Source: an uncultured Verrucomicrobiae bacterium
Lineage (GTDB): Bacteria; Verrucomicrobiota; Verrucomicrobiia; Limisphaerales; Palsa-1400
Assembly: GCA_963702845.1 (NCBI GenBank)
Contig: OY969763.1
Coordinates: forward strand, 1,632,001-1,696,000
Direction: 5' to 3'
Length of the DNA stretch: 64,000 bases
The notes below the pieces were generated by a model. It was not told the origin of the DNA, ran no database searches, and worked only from the letters and a program-made list of their open reading frames with translations. A program made the translations under genes and the position numbers. Of this stretch, positions 53,738 through 64,000 are shown in pieces (position 1 is the stretch's first letter; each line of letters starts with the position of its first letter).

Positions 53738-54089
53738 GGGGGCGTACTGGTTTCGACCTGAAAGTTACGCCAGAGGCGGCATGCCGAGGATGGTACGTTG
53801 GCCTCGTTAATCATCGAACCAAAAAATAGCTAACGAACAATTAGCACTCGCGGCCTAAATGTGCTGCGACGTTCGCCCTTGGACACCTGCTACGAGGGAC
53901 GAACGCCATAGCAGGTTAGGTGGAACACGGAGTCTGCGCGTGGTTCATCGAAGTAATTCCATGCGGGCTAAGCAGTCGGAATCGCGTTCGATCGTTATCC
54001 GGCAGTCTACAATATCTTTCGAACTAAGCATGTAGTCGCGGCTGGTTGATCAGTCAGGGACGCGGGTTCAACTCCCGCCGCCTCCACCA
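53738..54089 (+). ncRNA. ssrA: tmRNA
   Basis: 5' GGGGGCGTACTGGTTTCGAC, 3' T-arm GGGTTCAACTCCC and acceptor GCCTCCACCA; tag frame (A)NEQLALAA* at 53829-53858. Confidence 0.96.
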
Positions 54090-54152
54090 TATTTAACAGG
54101 GGTTTGGTGGATTTGTCTTGAGTCCTAACGGTTTTCCTAACAGAATGCCGTT

Positions 54153-55529
54153 ATGACAGCCGAGACGCGTACTCCAACTCCGCAAGTGTCAGCGCAAACC
54201 GATGCTGCGCCCTCTTTTCCGCTTCTGATTCAGACCGGCTCCGTTGTGGTGAAGATTTATAAGGTCACCAATAAGGGGCGGGATTCTTACACGATTTCTT
54301 ACATCACCCACGGCAAGCGGAAGCTCAAAATGTTTGCTGATTTGGAGAAGGCTATCGCCGCAGCGGAAGGCGTTGGCGACGCAATGGGTCGCGGCGAATT
54401 GGAGGTGCTCAATCTCCGCAGCAAGGAGCTGCTGAATTACCGGCTGGCGATGGATGCGCTCAAGCCGACCGGCGTTTCTCTTGAAGTTGCGGCGACGCAA
54501 TTCGCCCAGGCATTTGCAAAGCTGAACGGCAAAGCGACGCTGCTGGAGGCCGCTGAGTTTTATGTGAAGCGGAACCCGAACCAATCTCCAAAGTTGGTTT
54601 CGAAAGTGATAACGGATTTGCTGGAGGCCAAAGAAGCTGACGGAATGAGCGACGTTTATACCAAAGACCTGCGCAGCCGTTTGAAACGCGTTGGCAACTA
54701 TTTCAAGATGCCGATCGGGATGCTCACGGCGGCTGAGATTGAAAAGTTTTTGCGCGGACTGAAAACCGAGGGTGAATCGCCAAAGCCACTCACGGGCCGT
54801 TCACGAAACAATTACCGCCGCGCGATCGCGACGCTGCTCTATTTTGCTGAGAGTCGCGGGGACATCGTTAAGGGCACTGTTGATGTGGAGTCTATCGCAG
54901 TCGCGAAGCAGAATGACGGTGACATTGAGATTTTTACAGCGGATGAGCTCACGCGCATCTTTGCTACGGCTAGGCCGGTGCTGATCCCGTTCCTCGCCAT
55001 TGGCGCGTTTGCCGGACTACGCAGTGCGGAGATTGAGCGGCTGGATTGGTCCGAGGTTCGCATCGACGACGGGTTTATCGAGGTGAAGGCGAGCAAGGCG
55101 AAAACTGCGAGCCGACGTTTGGTGCCGATTTCCGAAAATTTGAAGTTGTGGCTTACGGATCACAAGAAGCCAAATGGCGCGGTCGTTCCATTTGCAAATA
55201 TGTCGAAACAACTTCTCTGGCTGGCGGAGGACGTGCACAAGGCCTGGCAAACGGAAAAGCCGGCGGGCGAGTTCAAGTGGAAGCATAATGCCCTACGGCA
55301 TTCGTTTATCAGCTACCGTGTGGCAACGGTGCAGAACGTGGCGCAGGTGGCGCTGGAAGCTGGTAACTCGCCAAAGATGGTGTTCTCGAACTACCGCGAG
55401 ATTGTCCGCCCCATAGATGCCGAGCGGTGGTTTGCGATCACGCCGGAAAGCGTCAGCGGCTTCAAAGTGAAAGTGGAACGTGAGCGAGCGGCGAAGATTG
55501 TGGCGCATCCGGTGGCGATGGCAGCGTAA
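54153..55529 (+). CDS. Tyrosine recombinase/integrase
   Basis: AFAGLRSAEI (R), KAKT (K), HNALRHSF, GNS, SNYRE (Y). Confidence 0.93.
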   Translation: MTAETRTPTPQVSAQTDAAPSFPLLIQTGSVVVKIYKVTNKGRDSYTISYITHGKRKLKMFADLEKAIAAAEGVGDAMGRGELEVLNLRSKELLNYRLAMDALKPTGVSLEVAATQFAQAFAKLNGKATLLEAAEFYVKRNPNQSPKLVSKVITDLLEAKEADGMSDVYTKDLRSRLKRVGNYFKMPIGMLTAAEIEKFLRGLKTEGESPKPLTGRSRNNYRRAIATLLYFAESRGDIVKGTVDVESIAVAKQNDGDIEIFTADELTRIFATARPVLIPFLAIGAFAGLRSAEIERLDWSEVRIDDGFIEVKASKAKTASRRLVPISENLKLWLTDHKKPNGAVVPFANMSKQLLWLAEDVHKAWQTEKPAGEFKWKHNALRHSFISYRVATVQNVAQVALEAGNSPKMVFSNYREIVRPIDAERWFAITPESVSGFKVKVERERAAKIVAHPVAMAA

Positions 55530-55624
55530 AGGGTGCGGAGGTGTGTTTACTGACGGCCGCTGACACGTGCGCCTTGTAGTCGGTGCTACGCTTCGACTTG
55601 AAACCCGAGGGGCAGCGCGGCAGG

Positions 55625-55677
55625 TGCGCTGCCGGCGCTGAAGGCTGGGTGCACGAAAAGGTAATACCCTAGCTGCG
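55625..55677 (+). repeat. 53-bp island repeat, copy 1
   Basis: tgcgctgccggcgctgaaggctgggtgcacgaaaaggtaataccctagctgcg. Confidence 0.9.
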
Positions 55678-55865: not shown

Positions 55866-55958
55866 ACTACCTCCTTACTGGTACAATAAGGCAGAGAGGC
55901 GCCAATTCAAAATAAACGGCGGCATAAATGGTATCAATCGCAAGGACGCCAATGTCAT

Positions 55959-56011
55959 TGCGCTGCCGGCGCTGGAGGCTAGAGGCACGAAAAGGTAAAA
56001 CTCTAGGTGTT
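55959..56011 (+). repeat. 53-bp island repeat, copy 2
   Basis: tgcgctgccggcgctggaggctagaggcacgaaaaggtaaaactctaggtgtt. Confidence 0.88.
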
Positions 56012-56287: not shown

Positions 56288-57257
56288 TTATGCCTTTCTG
56301 GGCATAAATTGTGCCGAATTAAATATCTCTGCATTCAGCACCTCAAGTATATTCCCACTCTTTTTATTTGCAACTAATTCGATGTCGTTCGGAAGTCCCA
56401 TATTAGCAAACACTAAAACGGTGTCAAAGTAGTCAAAATACCCTCTGAGATGCTCAATGAAACCACTATGTGACTCAGGAAGCGCCTTAAAATGCGGGAA
56501 TCGGCGTGACTGCTTGGCACGTTCCATGGCTTGCCGGATAGCTTTATCCAACGGTGTCAGTATAGCGACCATCGTGAGTTCATAGCCGTGTCTCTTTGCC
56601 AGGTCGATGCGCTGCATAGTCTCGCCGTGGCTGGACATCGACGAATCCAAGATGAATGATTTTTCCGCCTCGATCAGGTCAGACACGACCTCTCTGGTAA
56701 GCTCGACGCACTCTTTCTGAACGGTCCAACTGGCACGACCGTCGGCGACCGCTTTAATTAAGCTGAATTCCGGGATCCAGCTGTTTAAAGATATCGGCGC
56801 CCACCATATTCTTTTTTTCGAGCGGTAGCTTTTCATTCTTTGCAAGGTAGTTGACTGCAGTTGTTTTTCCACTCCCATAGCCGCCGCCAGTGAACACGAG
56901 TTGTGGCTTGCCTGGGAGTTTTATTGCCGGGTTGCTTGCGATGCCCTTAATTGTTTTGCGAAAGCTGTCGCGAGTAATGGATGTTTGCCCAGGAATCAGG
57001 CCAGCTTCAATCAAGTTGAATAACTGTGAATCGAATAGGTGACTATAGGAACATAAGTCTACCGTCGGCTTGTAGCGAGTTTCCGTGAGGATCGGATCTT
57101 CGGGCGAGATGATTTCTGGACGCGAGATTTTGCCTGGTTCGTATTTTGTATCCCACCACCAATCCCAAAATTCGTACGTTTGATCAATATTGTCGACTAA
57201 TGTTGCAAAGTCGAATTTCTCACCATCTTTTAATTTCGATAAAATTGGCAGATTCAT
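56288..57257 (-). pseudogene. Zeta-toxin-like P-loop kinase split by a 1-nt insertion near 56777-56778
   Basis: LVFTGGGYGSGKTT and GADIFKQL in one frame continue as IPEF...FILDSSMS...AMERA in the next; the join gives about 322 aa. Confidence 0.8.
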
Positions 57258-57426: not shown

Positions 57427-58134
57427 ATGGATATTTTGGTCGACTTTGACAACATCGATAATGCAATGAGATCGAAGGGACTGCAGATGGTTTGCACCCG
57501 GATGGTTCATGCGATTGCTAATAAAAAAGCTACGATGCCCGCCATGCTACGGTTTCGACTATATGGTGGTTGGTTTGAAAATGAGTCGCTTACCCGGCGC
57601 GCCCAAAACTTGAGTTCGGAGATTCAGCGTGACTTTCCAAGTACAATTCGGTGGAGCGGGGGAACCAGAACGGGAACGTGCGTTGCGCAGGTCGAAATGG
57701 CCTACGCCTTGGAGATTGAACCCGCAAGGAAGTTAACTCATACGTTTCGCGTGCGACCATTCGATGCGAAGATTCGCTGTCGGCTGAATTTAATATCGAA
57801 ATGCACACAATCGCCCTGTCCGACTGCCGCGATTGCAGCGTTTTTCAATGACAAGAAGTGCATTACCCAACGCTGCTACATGACCCCGGGCGACTTCCTG
57901 GAAAAGGAAGATCAAAAACTGGCTGATACTATGCTGACGGCGGATTTAATTTATCTGGCCACCCACGGAAAAAGTGATTTGGCCGTCGTTTCTTCAGACG
58001 ATGACCTTTGGCCTGGCATCCAGACTGCGCTGTTATCTGGTGCGAGGGTAATGCACTTACACACGCACAAGGAGCGCCAAACGCGACAATCATACTCCAA
58101 CGGTCTGCTGCAATATAAGGAGACTGCCCTCTAA
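57427..58134 (+). CDS. NYN/LabA (PIN-like) domain nuclease with Cys-rich insertion
   Basis: ILVDFDN, QKLADTML..D, VVSSDDDLWP acidic motifs; CTQSPC and CITQRC. Confidence 0.8.
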   Translation: MDILVDFDNIDNAMRSKGLQMVCTRMVHAIANKKATMPAMLRFRLYGGWFENESLTRRAQNLSSEIQRDFPSTIRWSGGTRTGTCVAQVEMAYALEIEPARKLTHTFRVRPFDAKIRCRLNLISKCTQSPCPTAAIAAFFNDKKCITQRCYMTPGDFLEKEDQKLADTMLTADLIYLATHGKSDLAVVSSDDDLWPGIQTALLSGARVMHLHTHKERQTRQSYSNGLLQYKETAL

Positions 58135-58138
58135 CCAT

Positions 58139-60412
58139 ATGGACAACACCACATTTAAACGAGTGCTGACGAGTTTTGCTGACACCCCGGGAAGCGTCGA
58201 TTTTTCGAAAGGCAAACTGGTATGCGAAATTCAAGACAAGATGATTGAAGCAACGCTTCAGTCTCGTGACGGAGAGCTTTGGGTTAATGAGCATGGGGAA
58301 GAGATGGCGGCGCATAAGTGGATTTTGCAACGTGTCGCACGTTTACCGATTCTGGCCGAGCGAATTTCTTCCGCATTTGAAGAGCCTGAAAATTTTATAA
58401 CGCCGAAAGCTGATTCCATGAGCAATTTGGATGAGCTTAGTGCCGGCAAATTCGAGCAATACGGGGATGCGACGACCCTGACGTTGGAACTTCTGGATCG
58501 TCGTCCTGGAGGATGTTCGAGTGTTGTGTATTTAACATCGGATGCAGGCGAAGGTAAAACGACGCTGATGCGTCATTTGGCCAGGCTACAGGCGGAGAGG
58601 TTTAAGGCCAAGCAGAGTGATTGGCTGCTAGTACCTATCGAGCTCGCCGGCAAGCCACTGCTGAGCTTTGATGATCTAGTGATCGGTTTTCTGAGCAATC
58701 GGCTCCGGTTCCCGCTGTTTTATTTCGATGCGTTCATGGAAATGGTGAAACTGGGGGTAATTGTTCCGGCCTTTGACGGGTTCGAAGAAATGTGGGTGCA
58801 AACGCCGCAAGGCGATGCTCTCTCCGCGATTGGAAGTCTGATGGGGACGATGGATTCAGCCGGAACAGTTTTGATTGCCGCCCGAAAAGCTTATTTCGAG
58901 TATCAAGACGTCAGGGCACAAGCCAGGTTGTTTGACTCAATCGGCAATAGTGCTGTGGTATTTTCCCGAGTCGCCATCCAGCGCTGGAACGAACCGCAGT
59001 TCCTACAATATTGTGAGAAACGCGGGATTAGTAATGGAAGAGAGATATTTAGCCGTGTAGCAGAGCGGCTAAAACCAGACCATCCCTTGCTCACGCGTGC
59101 TGTATTGATCAAGAGATTGCTGGACGTAGCGCAGGAATCCGGAAGTCTAGCCCAACTGCTGCAGGAAATTGGTAACTCGCCAGTAAATTACTTTGCGGTC
59201 TTTGTAAAAGCGATCGTCGAACGCGAGGCGCGGGAAAAATGGATAAATACGAAGCGAGACCCCCATGTCCCGCTATTAACAGTAGATGAGCATTTCGAGT
59301 TACTCGCTACGGTCGCACAGGAGATGTGGACGCTCTCGACGGACAACCTGAAAGGGGATGTCTTGGATTTGCTAACTGATCTGTTCTGCGAGGCTCGAAA
59401 GCTAGACGCGGACGTCACCTTCCAGATCAGAGAGCGAACGAAACAGCACGCCCTGATAGTGGGAGCCCCTGGCGCACGAAAGACGTTTTCGTTCGACCAC
59501 GAGGAGTTCAAAAACTTTTTCCTCGGAGAATCAGTAGGACAGATCTGCAGGAAGGCGGACCCTACCAAGAAGTTGGAACTTTTGGGCATATTGCGCAAAG
59601 CTACGCTGCCGAGCCAGGCGGTTGATGCGGCGCTCGCCACAATCCGAAAAAGTAAGAGCTTCAATAGCACTAAGGTCACCGCATTCCTGCAAGAGGTGGC
59701 GGGGTTGGATGGTCCAACGTCCTTCACCCGGGAGAATGTAGCGCGTTTGTTATTGAGGGTTCTGCATAGAAGCGCTTCGGATGGGATCACGTTCGTCGAC
59801 ATGTCTTTTGGAGTCGATGCGTTGCGCCACCTCGAACTCGATAACGTCACGTTCAATCAATGTTTATTCGCTCCAACTTCATTAGAAGATTCAATATTGA
59901 AGAACTGTAAATTTTCCAAGTGCCACTTCGACCAACTGATATTGCATTCATCCATGAAAATATTGAAGAGTGTGCTTGACTCCGACGAAGGAGAAATCGG
60001 AAGCATTTTACCAAGTGGTGCCCAAGATCCGGTGTACGATCCTTCGCGGTTTGGCCCACTGTTACAGAGGGCTGGCTTTGAAATTCCTAAAGTCGCCGGT
60101 CCAGTGACGACAAAGGTTGACGAGGATCAGTCCATGAAGATGTTCCGGCGGCTAATTCGACAATTCCAATACGGATCGCGTATTACCGAACCCGCCCTAG
60201 TCAAGCGACTGGGGCCCTTGGGAGGTTGTTTTGTGAAAGAAGTTGTGCCCCAGCTAGTGAAGGCCGGCGTTCTCGCTTTGGAATGGAGCACGGCTATAAA
60301 GCAGGAGCAGTATCGTCTTAACATTTCGATGGAGCGTATCTACGAAGCACTAAGAATCAGCTGGCCGTCAGTTGATCATTTAGTTGCCGAGATTACGCGC
60401 CCAACGGATTAG
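58139..60412 (+). CDS. NACHT/STAND-like P-loop NTPase with pentapeptide-like C-terminal repeats
   Basis: Walker A SDAGEGKTT, Walker B VPAFDGFEE, FSFDHEEFKNFFLG, LDNVTFNQCLF...LKNCKFSKCHF. Confidence 0.8.
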   Translation: MDNTTFKRVLTSFADTPGSVDFSKGKLVCEIQDKMIEATLQSRDGELWVNEHGEEMAAHKWILQRVARLPILAERISSAFEEPENFITPKADSMSNLDELSAGKFEQYGDATTLTLELLDRRPGGCSSVVYLTSDAGEGKTTLMRHLARLQAERFKAKQSDWLLVPIELAGKPLLSFDDLVIGFLSNRLRFPLFYFDAFMEMVKLGVIVPAFDGFEEMWVQTPQGDALSAIGSLMGTMDSAGTVLIAARKAYFEYQDVRAQARLFDSIGNSAVVFSRVAIQRWNEPQFLQYCEKRGISNGREIFSRVAERLKPDHPLLTRAVLIKRLLDVAQESGSLAQLLQEIGNSPVNYFAVFVKAIVEREAREKWINTKRDPHVPLLTVDEHFELLATVAQEMWTLSTDNLKGDVLDLLTDLFCEARKLDADVTFQIRERTKQHALIVGAPGARKTFSFDHEEFKNFFLGESVGQICRKADPTKKLELLGILRKATLPSQAVDAALATIRKSKSFNSTKVTAFLQEVAGLDGPTSFTRENVARLLLRVLHRSASDGITFVDMSFGVDALRHLELDNVTFNQCLFAPTSLEDSILKNCKFSKCHFDQLILHSSMKILKSVLDSDEGEIGSILPSGAQDPVYDPSRFGPLLQRAGFEIPKVAGPVTTKVDEDQSMKMFRRLIRQFQYGSRITEPALVKRLGPLGGCFVKEVVPQLVKAGVLALEWSTAIKQEQYRLNISMERIYEALRISWPSVDHLVAEITRPTD

Positions 60413-60430
60413 CCCGGGAAAGATTGCAGT

Positions 60431-60483
60431 TGCGCTGCCGGCGCTGGAGGCCAGGTGCACGAAAAGGTAATACCCTAGCTGCG
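60431..60483 (+). repeat. 53-bp island repeat, copy 3
   Basis: tgcgctgccggcgctggaggccaggtgcacgaaaaggtaataccctagctgcg. Confidence 0.9.
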
Positions 60484-60606: not shown

Positions 60607-62166
60607 ATGGAATTGACCCACATCCTCACATTCTTGTGGGACATAATCAACAACTGGGCTGGCTACGCAACCGGCGGATTGATCATGGCCCTTGTTTTTC
60701 TTGGGCAAACCTTGAGCAAAAAGTGGCAACCGTCGAGAGGGTTATTAAAGTTTCTATGCATCACGTTTTTGGCGCTCGCGATTTTCAAATCGTGGGACGA
60801 TCAGTATACATCTACCCTCACAATTCAAAAGTTGCTGAACGATAAATCACCCAAGTTAGACGGATTCATCCACAGGACTCTCATCGCCGATGAGCCAGGC
60901 ACGACAAACTCACTGATCCTAGCGGAAGTTAGCATATGCAACGCCGGGGCAATTCCAAGCATTGCAGAAGAATTCAGAGTGACTGCCTTGTTGCCACAAA
61001 CCAAATCCACGAACGCCCAAGATATTAATTTTTCGGATAAATATATCCTGAATTTTATTCACAAAGAAAAACCGTGGTTGCTCGATTTGAAAAGACCGCA
61101 ATTGATTGCTGAAAAAACGATCAAAGCGATACCCGTAGGTGAATCTCGACGAGGCTGGGTAGCCTTCAGGCTTCTTGGGGTGCCTACAAGCCGTCTCCAG
61201 CAGACCAATGTGGTGGTGTCATTTCTGGACATCGCCGGCACACGAATCCACGTGACGAATGGATTTTGGAAAGGAAAGCCGGGTAATCCGCAACCGCTCG
61301 ACGACCTAACGGCGACTATCCCTGAAGCGGAAAACATTTTCTATCTGGTTGAACCACCGGCGCGAACCAATTGGCTTCCGCCTGAGTTGCCAGCGGGCTG
61401 TAGCAACGTAGTAGTATTCCTTGGTGCTCAAGTGCTCGAACTTCCCGTTAAAATGGCGGAGATCTCGAGTGTCGGGAAAAAGTTTTCAATTTCAGAACTA
61501 CCAGATTTCCTATCGAAAGATTTGGATAAATCCCCGGACTATTCACCCCGCCGTCGGACGGTGTGGTTTCGGTCAAGTCCTCCTAAGACTTCCATTGGCG
61601 GAAAATCGATCGACTATCCTATTCAGCCGGCGGTCATCAGTAATCGCCTCTATGTTGAAGTAGAAATTCCTTTCTCCAACGAACGACGCGAGCTTGTTAT
61701 GAGTGATGATTTCGGCTCTCAACTTCCAATCCCGCAGAATTGGGACATTAATTTTAGTACGAACTACGATGCGTATGGAAATGGAATCTATGCGTATGAG
61801 GTTGTGAACGAATTAACCAATCCGGTACTGCAAGTGGTTTATACCGCACCTAACGAAGTTCACGTTAACGGAATTTTTCAAGTTGATACAAACAGCATAC
61901 TGGCCGCATTTGGTGAACCTCCAGTACTTGGCACATTTTCGTACACAAATCTTTCCACAAATGAAGGCTTAATGAAAGCGGCGCTGCAGATAGAGACTTT
62001 TCACGAAAGTTTGGTCATTCGCTCAAACGAATCTATCGCATCATTTGGGCAACGATTTACAAACGAGTTTTTTAGACCCATTTTCAAGTATCAAAGACCC
62101 ATATTTAAGTACCCATCGAATAGAAATCTCGGTGTCTTTGCAAATCCTGCGGGAACCAAACCTTAG
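60607..62166 (+). CDS. Hypothetical protein with two N-terminal TM segments
   Basis: 519-aa ORF, hydrophobic N-terminus, no recognisable motif. Confidence 0.7.
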   Translation: MELTHILTFLWDIINNWAGYATGGLIMALVFLGQTLSKKWQPSRGLLKFLCITFLALAIFKSWDDQYTSTLTIQKLLNDKSPKLDGFIHRTLIADEPGTTNSLILAEVSICNAGAIPSIAEEFRVTALLPQTKSTNAQDINFSDKYILNFIHKEKPWLLDLKRPQLIAEKTIKAIPVGESRRGWVAFRLLGVPTSRLQQTNVVVSFLDIAGTRIHVTNGFWKGKPGNPQPLDDLTATIPEAENIFYLVEPPARTNWLPPELPAGCSNVVVFLGAQVLELPVKMAEISSVGKKFSISELPDFLSKDLDKSPDYSPRRRTVWFRSSPPKTSIGGKSIDYPIQPAVISNRLYVEVEIPFSNERRELVMSDDFGSQLPIPQNWDINFSTNYDAYGNGIYAYEVVNELTNPVLQVVYTAPNEVHVNGIFQVDTNSILAAFGEPPVLGTFSYTNLSTNEGLMKAALQIETFHESLVIRSNESIASFGQRFTNEFFRPIFKYQRPIFKYPSNRNLGVFANPAGTKP

Positions 62167-62672: not shown

Positions 62673-63395
62673 TCAAATGGTCACTCCGGAGCTAACGGTT
62701 ATGGGTGAACCGTCCGCCACAAATGCTGAGTCCGGAGTTGCGCTTAATGGACTTGAGAACTGCGCGCCGTAAATCGACGCGATGTCGCAGCGCAGAACTG
62801 CGTTTCGTACCTGCCAAACGTACCAAGGATCGTGCGCCACGTGGTATTCCTTGCACGTGCCATTTGGTTGGGTGGTGTAACCCCAGTGGTGCTTAGTGAT
62901 GAATTCTTCTTTGGAACTTTCAATCACCGGCTGCAGGGCGCCAACGGTCGTGGCGGAGATTGTGTTCCAGTTACCTCGATAACACCACGCGTACTCTACG
63001 GACCCGCCGCTGGGCAACTTGTCGTTCACCGTCTCAATGGAGTGGGTCATTGGCATCACGGTGTAGGGTTCGTTGTAGTAGGTTCGTGCGACGGTCGCGA
63101 TTAGACGGCGAGGTACGATTTCTTTGATAAAAACGACGCCACGTCGCCAGCCGTCCGCAGCCCGGTGTCGCACATAGAAACGAAGATTCACCTCTTCGAA
63201 ATTGGAGTGCAGCGGCACGGAAACACCAAACACTTTGGTGCGCAGGAACAGAAAGCCAACAACGCTGAGGTAATTCTCGCCGTTCCATGTATCGAGTTCG
63301 ACGCCAGGTGGAATGTTGGGGCGGAGTAGTTCTGGATCGACAGCATAGTTGAGCATCAATAAATACTGCCAGTTGGCTGTGAGGAAGGTGCGCAT
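62673..63395 (-). CDS. YqjF/DUF2071 family protein
   Basis: FLTANW..L.MLNY, FEEVNLRFYV, RGVVFIKEIVP. Confidence 0.85.
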   Translation of the reverse strand: MRTFLTANWQYLLMLNYAVDPELLRPNIPPGVELDTWNGENYLSVVGFLFLRTKVFGVSVPLHSNFEEVNLRFYVRHRAADGWRRGVVFIKEIVPRRLIATVARTYYNEPYTVMPMTHSIETVNDKLPSGGSVEYAWCYRGNWNTISATTVGALQPVIESSKEEFITKHHWGYTTQPNGTCKEYHVAHDPWYVWQVRNAVLRCDIASIYGAQFSSPLSATPDSAFVADGSPITVSSGVTI

Positions 63396-63402
63396 CGAAC
63401 AT

Positions 63403-63816
63403 TCAAGATTTCTGCAACCCGCATTTACCTGAGATGCAATAACGGTTGTTTGCGAATGTGCGGTACCCTACATCGAATAGTTGCCTGAACACCGGGGTGA
63501 CGGAAAAAATATAAACTGGAAAGGCCCACCAGATCCGCCTCGTCACGTAACGATACACGTCCGCGCCCTGGATTTGCCGGCCGTCGCGGAGCAGCAAGCG
63601 TAAGTCTTTCAGAAGGTCTTCGCTGGACACGCTCAATTTTTCTTGAACCCAAGGGGCTTGCAGAGGCGCGATGTCGAAGCCTCGTTTGTGAAGCGTCATT
63701 CGCCAGAACGGAACCCAACGCCGACAAAACCCGCACGAAGCGTCGTAAAGAACCCATCCGTGGATTGTGCAGTCGTCAAACATCGAATCGACCGCAGTTG
63801 TTTGATGTTCGTGCAT
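63403..63816 (-). CDS. DCC1-like thiol-disulfide oxidoreductase (DUF393); start uncertain
   Basis: LYDASCGFC (DxxCxxC), YRTFANNRY. Confidence 0.85.
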   Translation of the reverse strand: MHEHQTTAVDSMFDDCTIHGWVLYDASCGFCRRWVPFWRMTLHKRGFDIAPLQAPWVQEKLSVSSEDLLKDLRLLLRDGRQIQGADVYRYVTRRIWWAFPVYIFSVTPVFRQLFDVGYRTFANNRYCISGKCGLQKS

Positions 63817-64000
63817 CTGCTTGTTCTCTTCCATATACCCCAGCGGTTTTGTGAGCACCATCCGCGAATGACCGCATGCGGGTGCGTTTTTTATCTGTGT
63901 GGTTATCATGGGATAAGCAATTGTATTGGAAAAGTGGAACGGGAAAAGTAACGTCGGTAAACCAAATGTACGTCAAACTATCGCTCCCAATTTTGATTTG

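Follow-up and report, generated by a model that had tools for sequence, protein, structure and literature searches.

Bacterial proteins that resemble nucleotide-binding, leucine-rich repeat (NLR) receptors are thought to be ancestors or analogues of the immune receptors of animals and plants. Among them, the Avs proteins are sensors of the STAND class (multi-domain ATPases that act in signal transduction) that oligomerize upon recognizing phage proteins and switch on a nuclease or another effector. To our knowledge, almost all of the bacterial NLR-like proteins that have been studied carry the effector on the same chain as the sensor. Here, we describe a gene pair in which a protein of the NACHT type is preceded by a separate gene for a nuclease of the NYN family. 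The pair lies in a 64-kb stretch of DNA, referred to as the window, from an uncultured Verrucomicrobiae bacterium (contig OY969763.1, assembly GCA_963702845.1); unless stated otherwise, coordinates are positions in this window. The two genes, termed gene 1 and gene 2, probably form one operon for an NLR-like, abortive-infection-type defence against phages or other mobile DNA, because they travel together across many bacterial groups and do so beside known anti-virus genes. In support of this function are the domain identities of the two proteins, their intact catalytic motifs, the strict pairing and co-divergence of the genes, their patchy and mobile distribution, and their context of defence islands, prophages and restriction operons. 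The trigger, the target of the nuclease, its release on activation and the protection itself are what we infer.

Both genes are encoded on the forward strand and start with ATG. Gene 1 specifies a protein of 235 residues and gene 2 (58139-60412) one of 757 residues. They are separated by 4 nt, with the letters CCAT, and the sequence AAGGAG occurs 15 nt 5′ of the start of gene 2. A search for homologues of gene 2 found 1176 relatives, and a profile search with gene 1 against 1.84 billion cluster representatives returned 1371 representatives at E ≤ 0.001, including 359 at E ≤ 1e-30. These numbers indicate that both open reading frames (ORFs) are real, conserved genes and not chance ORFs. The features of the pair are as follows, where NOD is the nucleotide-binding oligomerization domain, NBD the nucleotide-binding domain and HD2 the second helical domain.

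57427..58134, + strand: gene 1, NYN (PIN-like) metal-dependent nuclease, 235 aa (Pfam, alignments, AlphaFold model, VIA-align)
57640-57759, + strand: beta insert of gene 1, aa 72-111
57802-57876, + strand: Cys4 insert of gene 1, aa 126-150
58139..58504, + strand: N-terminal alpha/beta domain of gene 2, aa 1-122 (model secondary structure; no family matched)
58505..59773, + strand: NACHT NOD module of gene 2, aa about 123-545, comprising NBD, helical domain, winged helix and HD2 (alignment, Foldseek, VIA-align)
58538-58561, + strand: Walker A motif of gene 2, aa 134-141
58763-58789, + strand: Walker B motif of gene 2, DGFEE, aa 209-217
59774..60028, + strand: pentapeptide-repeat beta-helix of gene 2, aa about 546-630, the presumed sensor (profile, VIA-align)
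60131..60412, + strand: C-terminal domain of gene 2, aa about 665-757, plus the stop codon (winged-helix-like in the model only)

The assignment of gene 1 to the NYN nucleases is based on a fold match and on conserved motifs. The Pfam NYN model (PF01936) scored below its gathering threshold (E 0.021, 15.8 bits vs a cut-off of 24.2), and precomputed matches to this model exist for 5 of 48 homologues. Nevertheless, the AlphaFold model of the protein was of high confidence, with a pLDDT (the predicted value of the local distance difference test) of 94. In an exhaustive VIA-align comparison, its best fold match was the NYN domain of MARF1 (5yaa; Z 11.7, rmsd 3.1, 136 of 150 residues aligned), followed by the LabA-like protein 2qip (Z 10.3, rmsd 4.0, 142 aligned) and, at Z 7 to 8, by nucleases of the PIN/FEN type, namely T4 RNase H and FEN-type 5′ nucleases. 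Foldseek yielded no match to the gene 1 model at E ≤ 0.001, and the family profile had no match among PDB sequences.

The residues expected of such a nuclease are conserved. In an alignment of 38 homologues of gene 1, D6, N9, Y46, G48, W49, T106, R108, C126, C131, C145, C150, Q163, K164, D167, D173 and D191-D193 are invariant. Among the 68 sequences taken from genomic pairs, D6, D167, D173, D191 and D193 are kept in 65-68 and N9 in 65, while the four cysteines C126, C131, C145 and C150, arranged as Cx4C...Cx4C, are kept in 63-68. We equated the acidic residues with the catalytic aspartates of MARF1 by means of the fold alignment as a whole and not residue by residue. According to the accessible part of Payne et al. 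(10.1101/2024.01.29.577857), these aspartates constitute the RNase active site of MARF1. The Cys4 insert of gene 1 appears to be Zn-ribbon-like. The best 150 of the 1371 profile matches are all 212-341 aa long, which indicates that members of the gene 1 family are stand-alone proteins.

Gene 2 is likewise remote from the Pfam models. As a single sequence, it gave matches of P-loop length to AAA_16, nSTAND and NACHT models and a sub-threshold match to Pentapeptide_4. The NACHT model PF05729 covered the P-loop only and remained below its gathering score (E 0.035, 14.4 bits vs a cut-off of 26.7) because the family is too divergent for this model. In a 33-sequence alignment, however, the Walker A (GEGKT, including K140) and Walker B (D213-G-F-E-E217) motifs are invariant. 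Across the 68 genomic pairs, the pattern GxxGxGK[ST] of the Walker A motif is present, with G137, G139 and K140 kept in all 68 and T141 in 67; every residue of the Walker B motif, D213-G214-F215-E216-E217, is kept in all 68. What sets NACHT proteins apart from other STAND clades, according to the accessible text of Kibby et al. (10.1101/2022.07.19.500537), is a small residue after the Walker B aspartate followed by two acidic residues. The Walker B motif of gene 2 fits this signature, its first acidic residue being Glu rather than Asp. Overall, the retention of the catalytic Asp and Asn residues, the Cys4 motif and the two Walker motifs in 63-68 of the 68 pairs makes both proteins look like active enzymes.

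The structural comparisons point to the same family. The gene 2 model (pLDDT 82, predicted template modelling score 0.57) matched NLRC4 (4kxf), NOD2, NLRP3, NLRP9 and NAIP5. All of the top Foldseek rows were NLRC4, NOD2 or NLRP structures, the best being 4kxf (E 7.2e-13). Similarly, the top seven VIA-align rows were all NACHT NLRs (Z 12.7 to 15.2, model residues 57-645), including NLRP3 7vtq (Z 15.2, rmsd 9.5, 363 aligned) and NOD2 (Z 13.6). ORC/Cdc6, Apaf-1, MalT and Avs5 ranked under these NLRs, at Z of about 10 to 12. The fold search effectively covered model residues 67-480, with both end domains falling outside this range. By its motifs and its modelled fold, gene 2 is a true NACHT-type STAND ATPase.

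The pentapeptide repeats were recognized through the family: the gene 2 profile matched the pentapeptide protein MfpA (2bm4) at E 1.4e-7, and the modelled repeat region superimposed on 6uv7 with Z 10.5 and rmsd 2.2 over 89 aligned residues (VIA-align). The Pfam pentapeptide score of the single sequence was below the cut-off (22.1 vs 38 bits), and NCBIfam gave a weak match of HalA to the repeat region only (25 bits vs a cut-off of 250). Pentapeptide repeats are listed among the sensor types of NACHT proteins in the accessible text of Kibby et al. (10.1101/2022.07.19.500537). The N-terminal domain is conserved, with invariant F13, D15, E51 and W61. Residues 1-122 matched no family: the best Atlas score, 0.83, was at noise level, and a 29-sequence profile of the domain found nothing convincing in PDB (best E 0.07) or Pfam. 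A 35-sequence profile of the C-terminal domain had no match in either of these two databases.

An initial annotation of this DNA, made from the sequence alone, had anticipated much of this description. It had noted the two-gene layout with its 4-bp spacing, the intact PIN/NYN acidic motifs and the Cx4C...Cx4C insertion of gene 1, and, in gene 2, Walker A/B motifs of the STAND type, an N-terminal region of roughly 120 aa without a recognized effector, and pentapeptide-like repeats. Each of these features was confirmed, the repeats as a beta-helix at about 545-630. The annotation had called gene 2 'NACHT-like'; the STAND ATPase part of that description stands, and the name is here refined to a true NACHT.

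To describe the linkage of the two genes, we scanned one genome per species, which yielded at least 155 loci, and analysed the best 80 of the 155. Loci of the pair occur in Acidobacteriota, Planctomycetota, Gemmatimonadota, Pseudomonadota, Bacteroidota, Cyanobacteria, Spirochaetota, Latescibacterota, Myxococcota and others. At 76 of the 80 loci, the gene 1 homologue is on the same strand as gene 2 and ends -20 to +26 nt from its start. The exceptions are two loci from Longimicrobiales in which the genes are divergent, one without upstream DNA, and one with a truncated gene 2 and no gene 1. The pairwise identities of the two proteins co-vary, with r 0.90 across 68 pairs, a value reached by 0 of 999 label permutations. 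Clustering of neighbouring ORFs of at least 80 aa revealed no third conserved gene, shorter ORFs being outside the screen; the next-largest neighbour cluster after the pair itself is found at 7 loci and concerns restriction-modification.

The distribution of the pair is sporadic. It is present as a single copy in its own genome. Among 60 relatives of this genome, two had a match, and both matches were broken: one was split in two, and the other was a fragment containing a stop. Neither of the same-genus genomes, which are 73% and 67% complete, had a match. Five viral contigs in IMG/VR carry gene 2. The nuclease gene lies upstream in four of them, in one case split, and the fifth contig is cut at gene 2. 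Genes beside the pair on these contigs encode tail sheath, baseplate, tail-fibre assembly, invertase, portal, spanin, endolysin and integrase proteins. By contrast, the family had no match in GenBank phages, in complete genomes of E. coli or in PLSDB plasmids, so screens centred on E. coli may have missed it. Public records name the homologues hypothetical, 'pentapeptide repeat-containing' or 'NACHT domain-containing'.

The neighbours of the pair are enriched in defence genes. There are 147 directly flanking ORFs, from which we scanned the 97 of 150-1300 aa and set aside 48 shorter and 2 giant ones. At two loci (L001:446-7123 and L002:43-6888), a giant ORF of about 2200-2300 aa is directly upstream of the pair and was outside the family scans for its size. 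Defining a defence match as a PADLOC model at E ≤ 1e-10, 29 of the 97 scanned neighbours matched, one of the 29 probably being a housekeeping cysteine desulfurase. The matches comprise restriction-modification proteins (type I R, M and S subunits; type II, IIG and III enzymes; Vsr), other defence proteins (GmrSD-type, DarG, HmaC, GajB, NsnA, QatD and mad3) and the candidates PDC-S02, PDC-S46 and PDC-M04A. By their Pfam families, 24 direct neighbours are restriction- or defence-like and 5 relate to mobility. In a control set of 40 proteins encoded by the window outside the island, 3 matched at the same threshold, two of them being generic methyltransferases (one-sided Fisher p 0.003 for 29/97 vs 3/40). 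At two loci (L061 and L067), the pair is located between HsdS and HsdR, at another (L009) between Dcm and Vsr, and at L003 it adjoins HmaC. A position inside HsdS/HsdR or Dcm/Vsr corresponds to the 'embedded' position which, according to the accessible part of Payne et al. (10.1101/2024.01.29.577857), was used for nominating defence candidates.

Many of the neighbours are housekeeping genes, and the C-terminal domain of gene 2 is winged-helix-like in the model. Moreover, LabA-type NYN proteins and STAND transcription regulators both occur in bacteria. These points would fit a module of host physiology without a role in defence, in which a STAND regulator would control transcription, binding DNA through its C-terminal winged helix, and a LabA/NYN RNase would tune transcripts. 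We nevertheless judge this explanation to be very improbable: the neighbourhoods differ at almost every locus and contain no conserved target operon, the pair is scattered across many phyla and had a match in only 2 of 60 relatives, and it occurs inside prophages and restriction operons.

We then considered how the two proteins might act together. Using both alignments, the complex of the two proteins was predicted with a score of 0.63 (runs of 0.63, 0.63 and 0.39), as compared with 0.00 for the best of three controls. Of 157 solved complexes, 116 reach a score of 0.63, as do 2 of 215 mismatched pairs; these counts provide only a rough benchmark because custom alignments were used here. The runs agreed in at least 86% of contacts, and the pLDDT of the partner was at least 82. 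The predicted interface comprises residues 172-197 (NBD), 233, 395-415 (winged helix), 479-482 and 523-529 (HD2) of gene 2, and residues 39-40, 53-73, 84-102 and 180-181 of gene 1. In this prediction, the beta insert and the neighbouring helix of the nuclease (53-73 and 84-102) lie on the NBD, the winged helix and HD2, and the N-terminal domain of gene 2 is outside the interface. The predicted docking site of the nuclease is accordingly on the NACHT core (NBD, winged-helix domain and HD2) and not on the N-terminal region.

In the mechanism that we propose, gene 2 would be the sensor and switch, built around its NACHT ATPase core; the pentapeptide beta-helix and the small C-terminal domain would be the likely ligand-recognition part; and the NYN nuclease would be the effector. 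In a resting cell, the nuclease would sit on the closed NACHT core, touching the surfaces of the NBD, the winged helix and HD2. By analogy with NLRs and Avs proteins, an invader-derived cue bound at the repeat region would lead to nucleotide exchange and oligomerization. The surface that holds the nuclease would be remodelled and the nuclease released or clustered. It would then cut RNA or, less likely, DNA, whereupon growth of the infected cell would stop and the phage with it. In NLR activation, the NBD and the winged helix move relative to each other. Because the predicted docking surface spans both, the switch would be expected to release or cluster the nuclease. The initial annotation had read the pair as a split sensor-effector system with the nuclease encoded in trans, and had named conservation of the pair, enrichment in defence islands and an AlphaFold-multimer prediction as ways to check it. 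The co-conservation of the adjacent genes, the excess of defence genes over the core proteins of the window, the carriage by prophages and the predicted complex, whose score relative to the controls favours binding, all support that reading.

The predicted position of the nuclease also bears on an alternative in which the roles are reversed or shared. In it, the N-terminal domain of gene 2 would be the effector, and the NYN protein would be a lock that keeps the NOD closed, or else a co-receptor that senses RNA or DNA. The N-terminal domain has its four invariant residues and is placed where NLR effectors sit, the nuclease is predicted on the NOD and not on the N-terminus, and the complex of MalT with its inhibitor (8bob) is among the structural neighbours of the NOD (Z 10.8). 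According to the accessible part of PMC10427625, inhibitory partners keep the STAND regulator MalT closed. A pure lock, however, would have no need of the near-invariant catalytic residues of the NYN protein, and the N-terminal domain is without recognizable enzymatic or pore-forming features. We consider a reversal or sharing of roles quite unlikely.

In the genome from which the window derives, the pair is at the integrase end of an island inserted at ssrA, the gene of transfer-messenger RNA (tmRNA). The features around the pair are as follows.

53738..54089, + strand: tmRNA (ssrA), integration target of the island (ARAGORN; Rfam RF00023, 156.6 bits)
54153..55529, + strand: tyrosine recombinase (integrase) of the island (Pfam Phage_integrase E 2e-5, just under the cut-off; NCBIfam XerA/integron-integrase-like E 1.6e-7)
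55620..55677, + strand: 58-nt direct repeat, copy 1, 91 nt past the integrase stop
55954..56011, + strand: 58-nt direct repeat, copy 2, left border of the 4.4-kb pair segment
56025-56285: 86-aa ORF directly after the zeta-toxin-like gene
56288..57257, - strand: zeta-toxin-like P-loop kinase in two overlapping ORFs, 56754-57257 and 56288-56878 (Pfam Zeta_toxin E 3.1e-12 and 2.3e-3)
60426..60483, + strand: 58-nt direct repeat, copy 3, 13 nt past the gene 2 stop, right border

An exact second copy of the tmRNA's final 24 nt (54067-54090) lies about 55 kb downstream, beyond the window, at the window-equivalent positions 109451-109474. The island of about 55 kb consists mostly of small genes without assigned function, together with genes for a WYL regulator, a PD-(D/E)XK nuclease, a PIF1 helicase, Imm50, an IS110 transposase, a DUF4055 portal-like protein and DnaT_2. 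Based on the repeated tmRNA end and on this gene content, the island is mobile, probably a decayed prophage or integrative element. These features agree with the initial annotation, which had placed the pair in an ssrA island between repeats. Just past repeat copy 3, a 519-aa ORF (60607-62166, + strand) had no match in Pfam, PADLOC or NCBIfam. The island also encodes a DUF2071 protein (62673-63395, - strand) beside a DCC1-like thiol-disulfide oxidoreductase (63403-63909).

The segment of 4.4 kb between copies 2 and 3 of the 58-nt repeat contains the zeta-toxin-like gene, the 86-aa ORF and the pair. The zeta-toxin-like gene carries a frameshift, as the Pfam profile continues from one of its ORFs into the other near 56780-56785, and it is not conserved with the pair at other loci. 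The 58-nt repeat had 0 matches in 100 shuffles. It belongs to no Rfam family, and its fold was no better than that of shuffled sequences (z from -1.1 to +0.75). Comparison of the sequences ruled out that the repeat is a copy of the tmRNA end. Across the genome, the repeat extends over about 50-58 nt with unrelated flanks, a 21-nt core being present in 11 copies and a longer 37-nt pattern in 8. The 37-nt pattern has 5 copies in one same-genus genome and none in 29 other relatives. The copies occupy very short intergenic gaps. The genome encodes paralogues of the island integrase elsewhere, and at three places the repeat lies 3′ of tyrosine-integrase paralogues and shares their orientation. At the second integrase locus, a copy of the 58-nt repeat follows the gene for a DUF2071 protein (L092:3213-4013, + strand) at a distance of 14 nt. 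At 93.9-112.1 kb of the genome, four copies separate genes for an integrase, a NERD nuclease, a Schlafen-STAND-TPR protein, a 718-aa AAA_16 protein, RmuC and an HNH protein. The repeat may represent a cassette junction or a site of recombination, or else a remnant resembling a miniature inverted-repeat transposable element.

A zeta-like gene of the toxin-antitoxin type in the same repeat-bounded segment, and the carriage of the pair by integrative elements and prophages, raise the question of addiction. The pair might be a module akin to toxin-antitoxin systems, in which the NYN protein is a constitutive toxin restrained by the NACHT protein and which stabilizes islands and prophages, phage exclusion being a side effect. 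The predicted stable complex, which puts the nuclease on the resting NACHT core, is consistent with this idea. The partner, however, is an ATPase of 757 aa whose Walker motifs are strictly conserved and which has a repeat sensor; this far exceeds the needs of an antitoxin. Furthermore, copies exist that are broken in either gene: at one locus (L087), the nuclease is split and the NACHT protein intact; at another (L048), the NACHT protein is truncated and the nuclease intact. That each gene can be broken with the other intact argues against strict addiction, and we regard such a module as distinctly unlikely. A type II toxin-antitoxin system of the VapBC type was rejected on the basis of the ORFs of at least 80 aa: where such a system would pair the PIN toxin with a small DNA-binding antitoxin, the conserved partner here is the NACHT protein of 757 aa, and the screen of these ORFs revealed no third conserved gene.

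Returning to the pair as a defence operon, the complex and the repeats together suggest a tentative picture, which we hold to be rather unlikely as a whole. The nuclease would be a non-covalent cargo on the switch faces of the NBD, the winged helix and HD2, and in this lineage the pair would perhaps have been acquired as a repeat-bounded cassette. The closed-to-open change of the NACHT core would itself free or assemble the effector, leaving the conserved N-terminal domain as a further functional module. As for the cassette, the genus-specific repeat of about 50 nt would mark the junctions of several integrase-linked clusters of defence genes. We know of no description of such a 'cargo on the switch' design for NLR-type immune proteins.

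Several observations weigh against the defence operon and the mechanism proposed for it. First, about 70% of the direct neighbours are non-defence genes, many of them plainly housekeeping, and the control for the enrichment is small, with 40 proteins from a single genome. Second, the longer proteins searched included no fused NYN-NACHT protein; this absence is weak evidence, and such a form would have tied the two proteins together independently. Third, a score of only 0.39 was obtained in one of three runs of the complex prediction, and the residues of the interface are no more conserved than the rest (0.41 vs 0.49 for gene 1; 0.59 vs 0.54, p 0.10, for gene 2), so the complex stays a prediction. 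Fourth, the conserved N-terminal domain of gene 2 has no role in the favoured model. Fifth, the fold of gene 1 leaves the choice between RNA and DNA as substrate undecided, given that T4 RNase H and the FEN-type 5′ nucleases come next among its matches. Finally, HEC-09, the nearest NYN candidate to have been tested, gave no protection against the phages tried, according to the accessible part of Payne et al. (10.1101/2024.01.29.577857).

The family is large, with at least 155 loci in species-representative genomes and more than 1000 protein clusters, and it extends over many phyla and into prophages. A NACHT sensor with a separate NYN nuclease would be a clean two-component model for studying the control that an NLR switch exerts on an effector in trans. 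Such a pair would further bring an executioner of the RNase type into the NLR repertoire and close a gap in the catalogues of defence systems.

Finally, we compared the pair with described systems. Gene 2 had no match at E ≤ 0.1 in PADLOC-DB 2.0.0, which includes the Avs models and the HEC and PDC candidates that Payne et al. put forward, and no model of NCBIfam 20.0 covers the pair. A full-text literature search for a NYN and NACHT pair and for six homologue accessions found no description; Table S1 of Kibby et al., which was outside this search, may list the NACHT protein alone. The initial annotation had likewise been unable to assign the pair to a named system, and these searches agree with it.

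In domain architecture, gene 2 is close to the NLR-related bNACHT anti-phage proteins. As described in the accessible text of Kibby et al. (10.1101/2022.07.19.500537), these share with gene 2 a NACHT NOD with a Walker A motif, a Walker B Asp that precedes a small residue and then two acidic ones, and a winged helix, as well as the order of N-terminal domain, NACHT and C-terminal repeat sensor. In the pair, by contrast, the only recognizable effector is a separate gene, strictly conserved upstream, and the accessible main text of that preprint mentions neither NYN nor PIN. The Avs/AVAST proteins are also related by structure, EfAvs5 (9jap, Z 10.1) and AVAST5 (9nc9, Z 9.8) being structural neighbours of gene 2. 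However, their effectors are fused, and Avs ranks below the NACHT NLRs for the gene 2 model. The repeat region of gene 2 resembles MfpA, Qnr and HalA in forming a right-handed quadrilateral beta-helix. MfpA and Qnr are said to mimic DNA; unlike these proteins, the helix of gene 2 makes up some 85 residues within a STAND protein.

For gene 1, the fold and the acidic metal-binding pocket are those of the NYN nucleases MARF1, LabA and YacP. It differs from them in its beta insert and Cys4 insert, its sub-threshold Pfam NYN score and a profile without a PDB match. Like HEC-09, which the accessible part of Payne et al. (10.1101/2024.01.29.577857) describes as a MARF1-like NYN nuclease with conserved aspartates embedded in defence systems of the Hma type, gene 1 occurs beside defence genes, at one locus (L003) beside HmaC. 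HEC-09, however, is a single protein with an N-terminal part resembling a helix-turn-helix and has no NACHT partner. Identity of gene 1 with HEC-09 (PDLC04163) was rejected: the window protein matched at E 0.015, and 11 of 38 homologues matched, with a best E of 2.4e-4 over about 50 residues. By sequence, the relation is one of distant NYN kinship only.

In its division of labour, the pair resembles the CARD-NLR protease-gasdermin operons, which, according to the accessible part of PMC10312443, also place an NLR-like sensor and an executioner on separate genes of an operon. There, the two are linked by an adaptor domain (CARD) and a protease cascade, whereas the nuclease of the pair is predicted to sit directly on the NOD. 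Set beside these systems, the pair is a candidate for a widespread, uncharacterized two-gene defence system of the NLR-like STAND type, with its nuclease encoded in trans.

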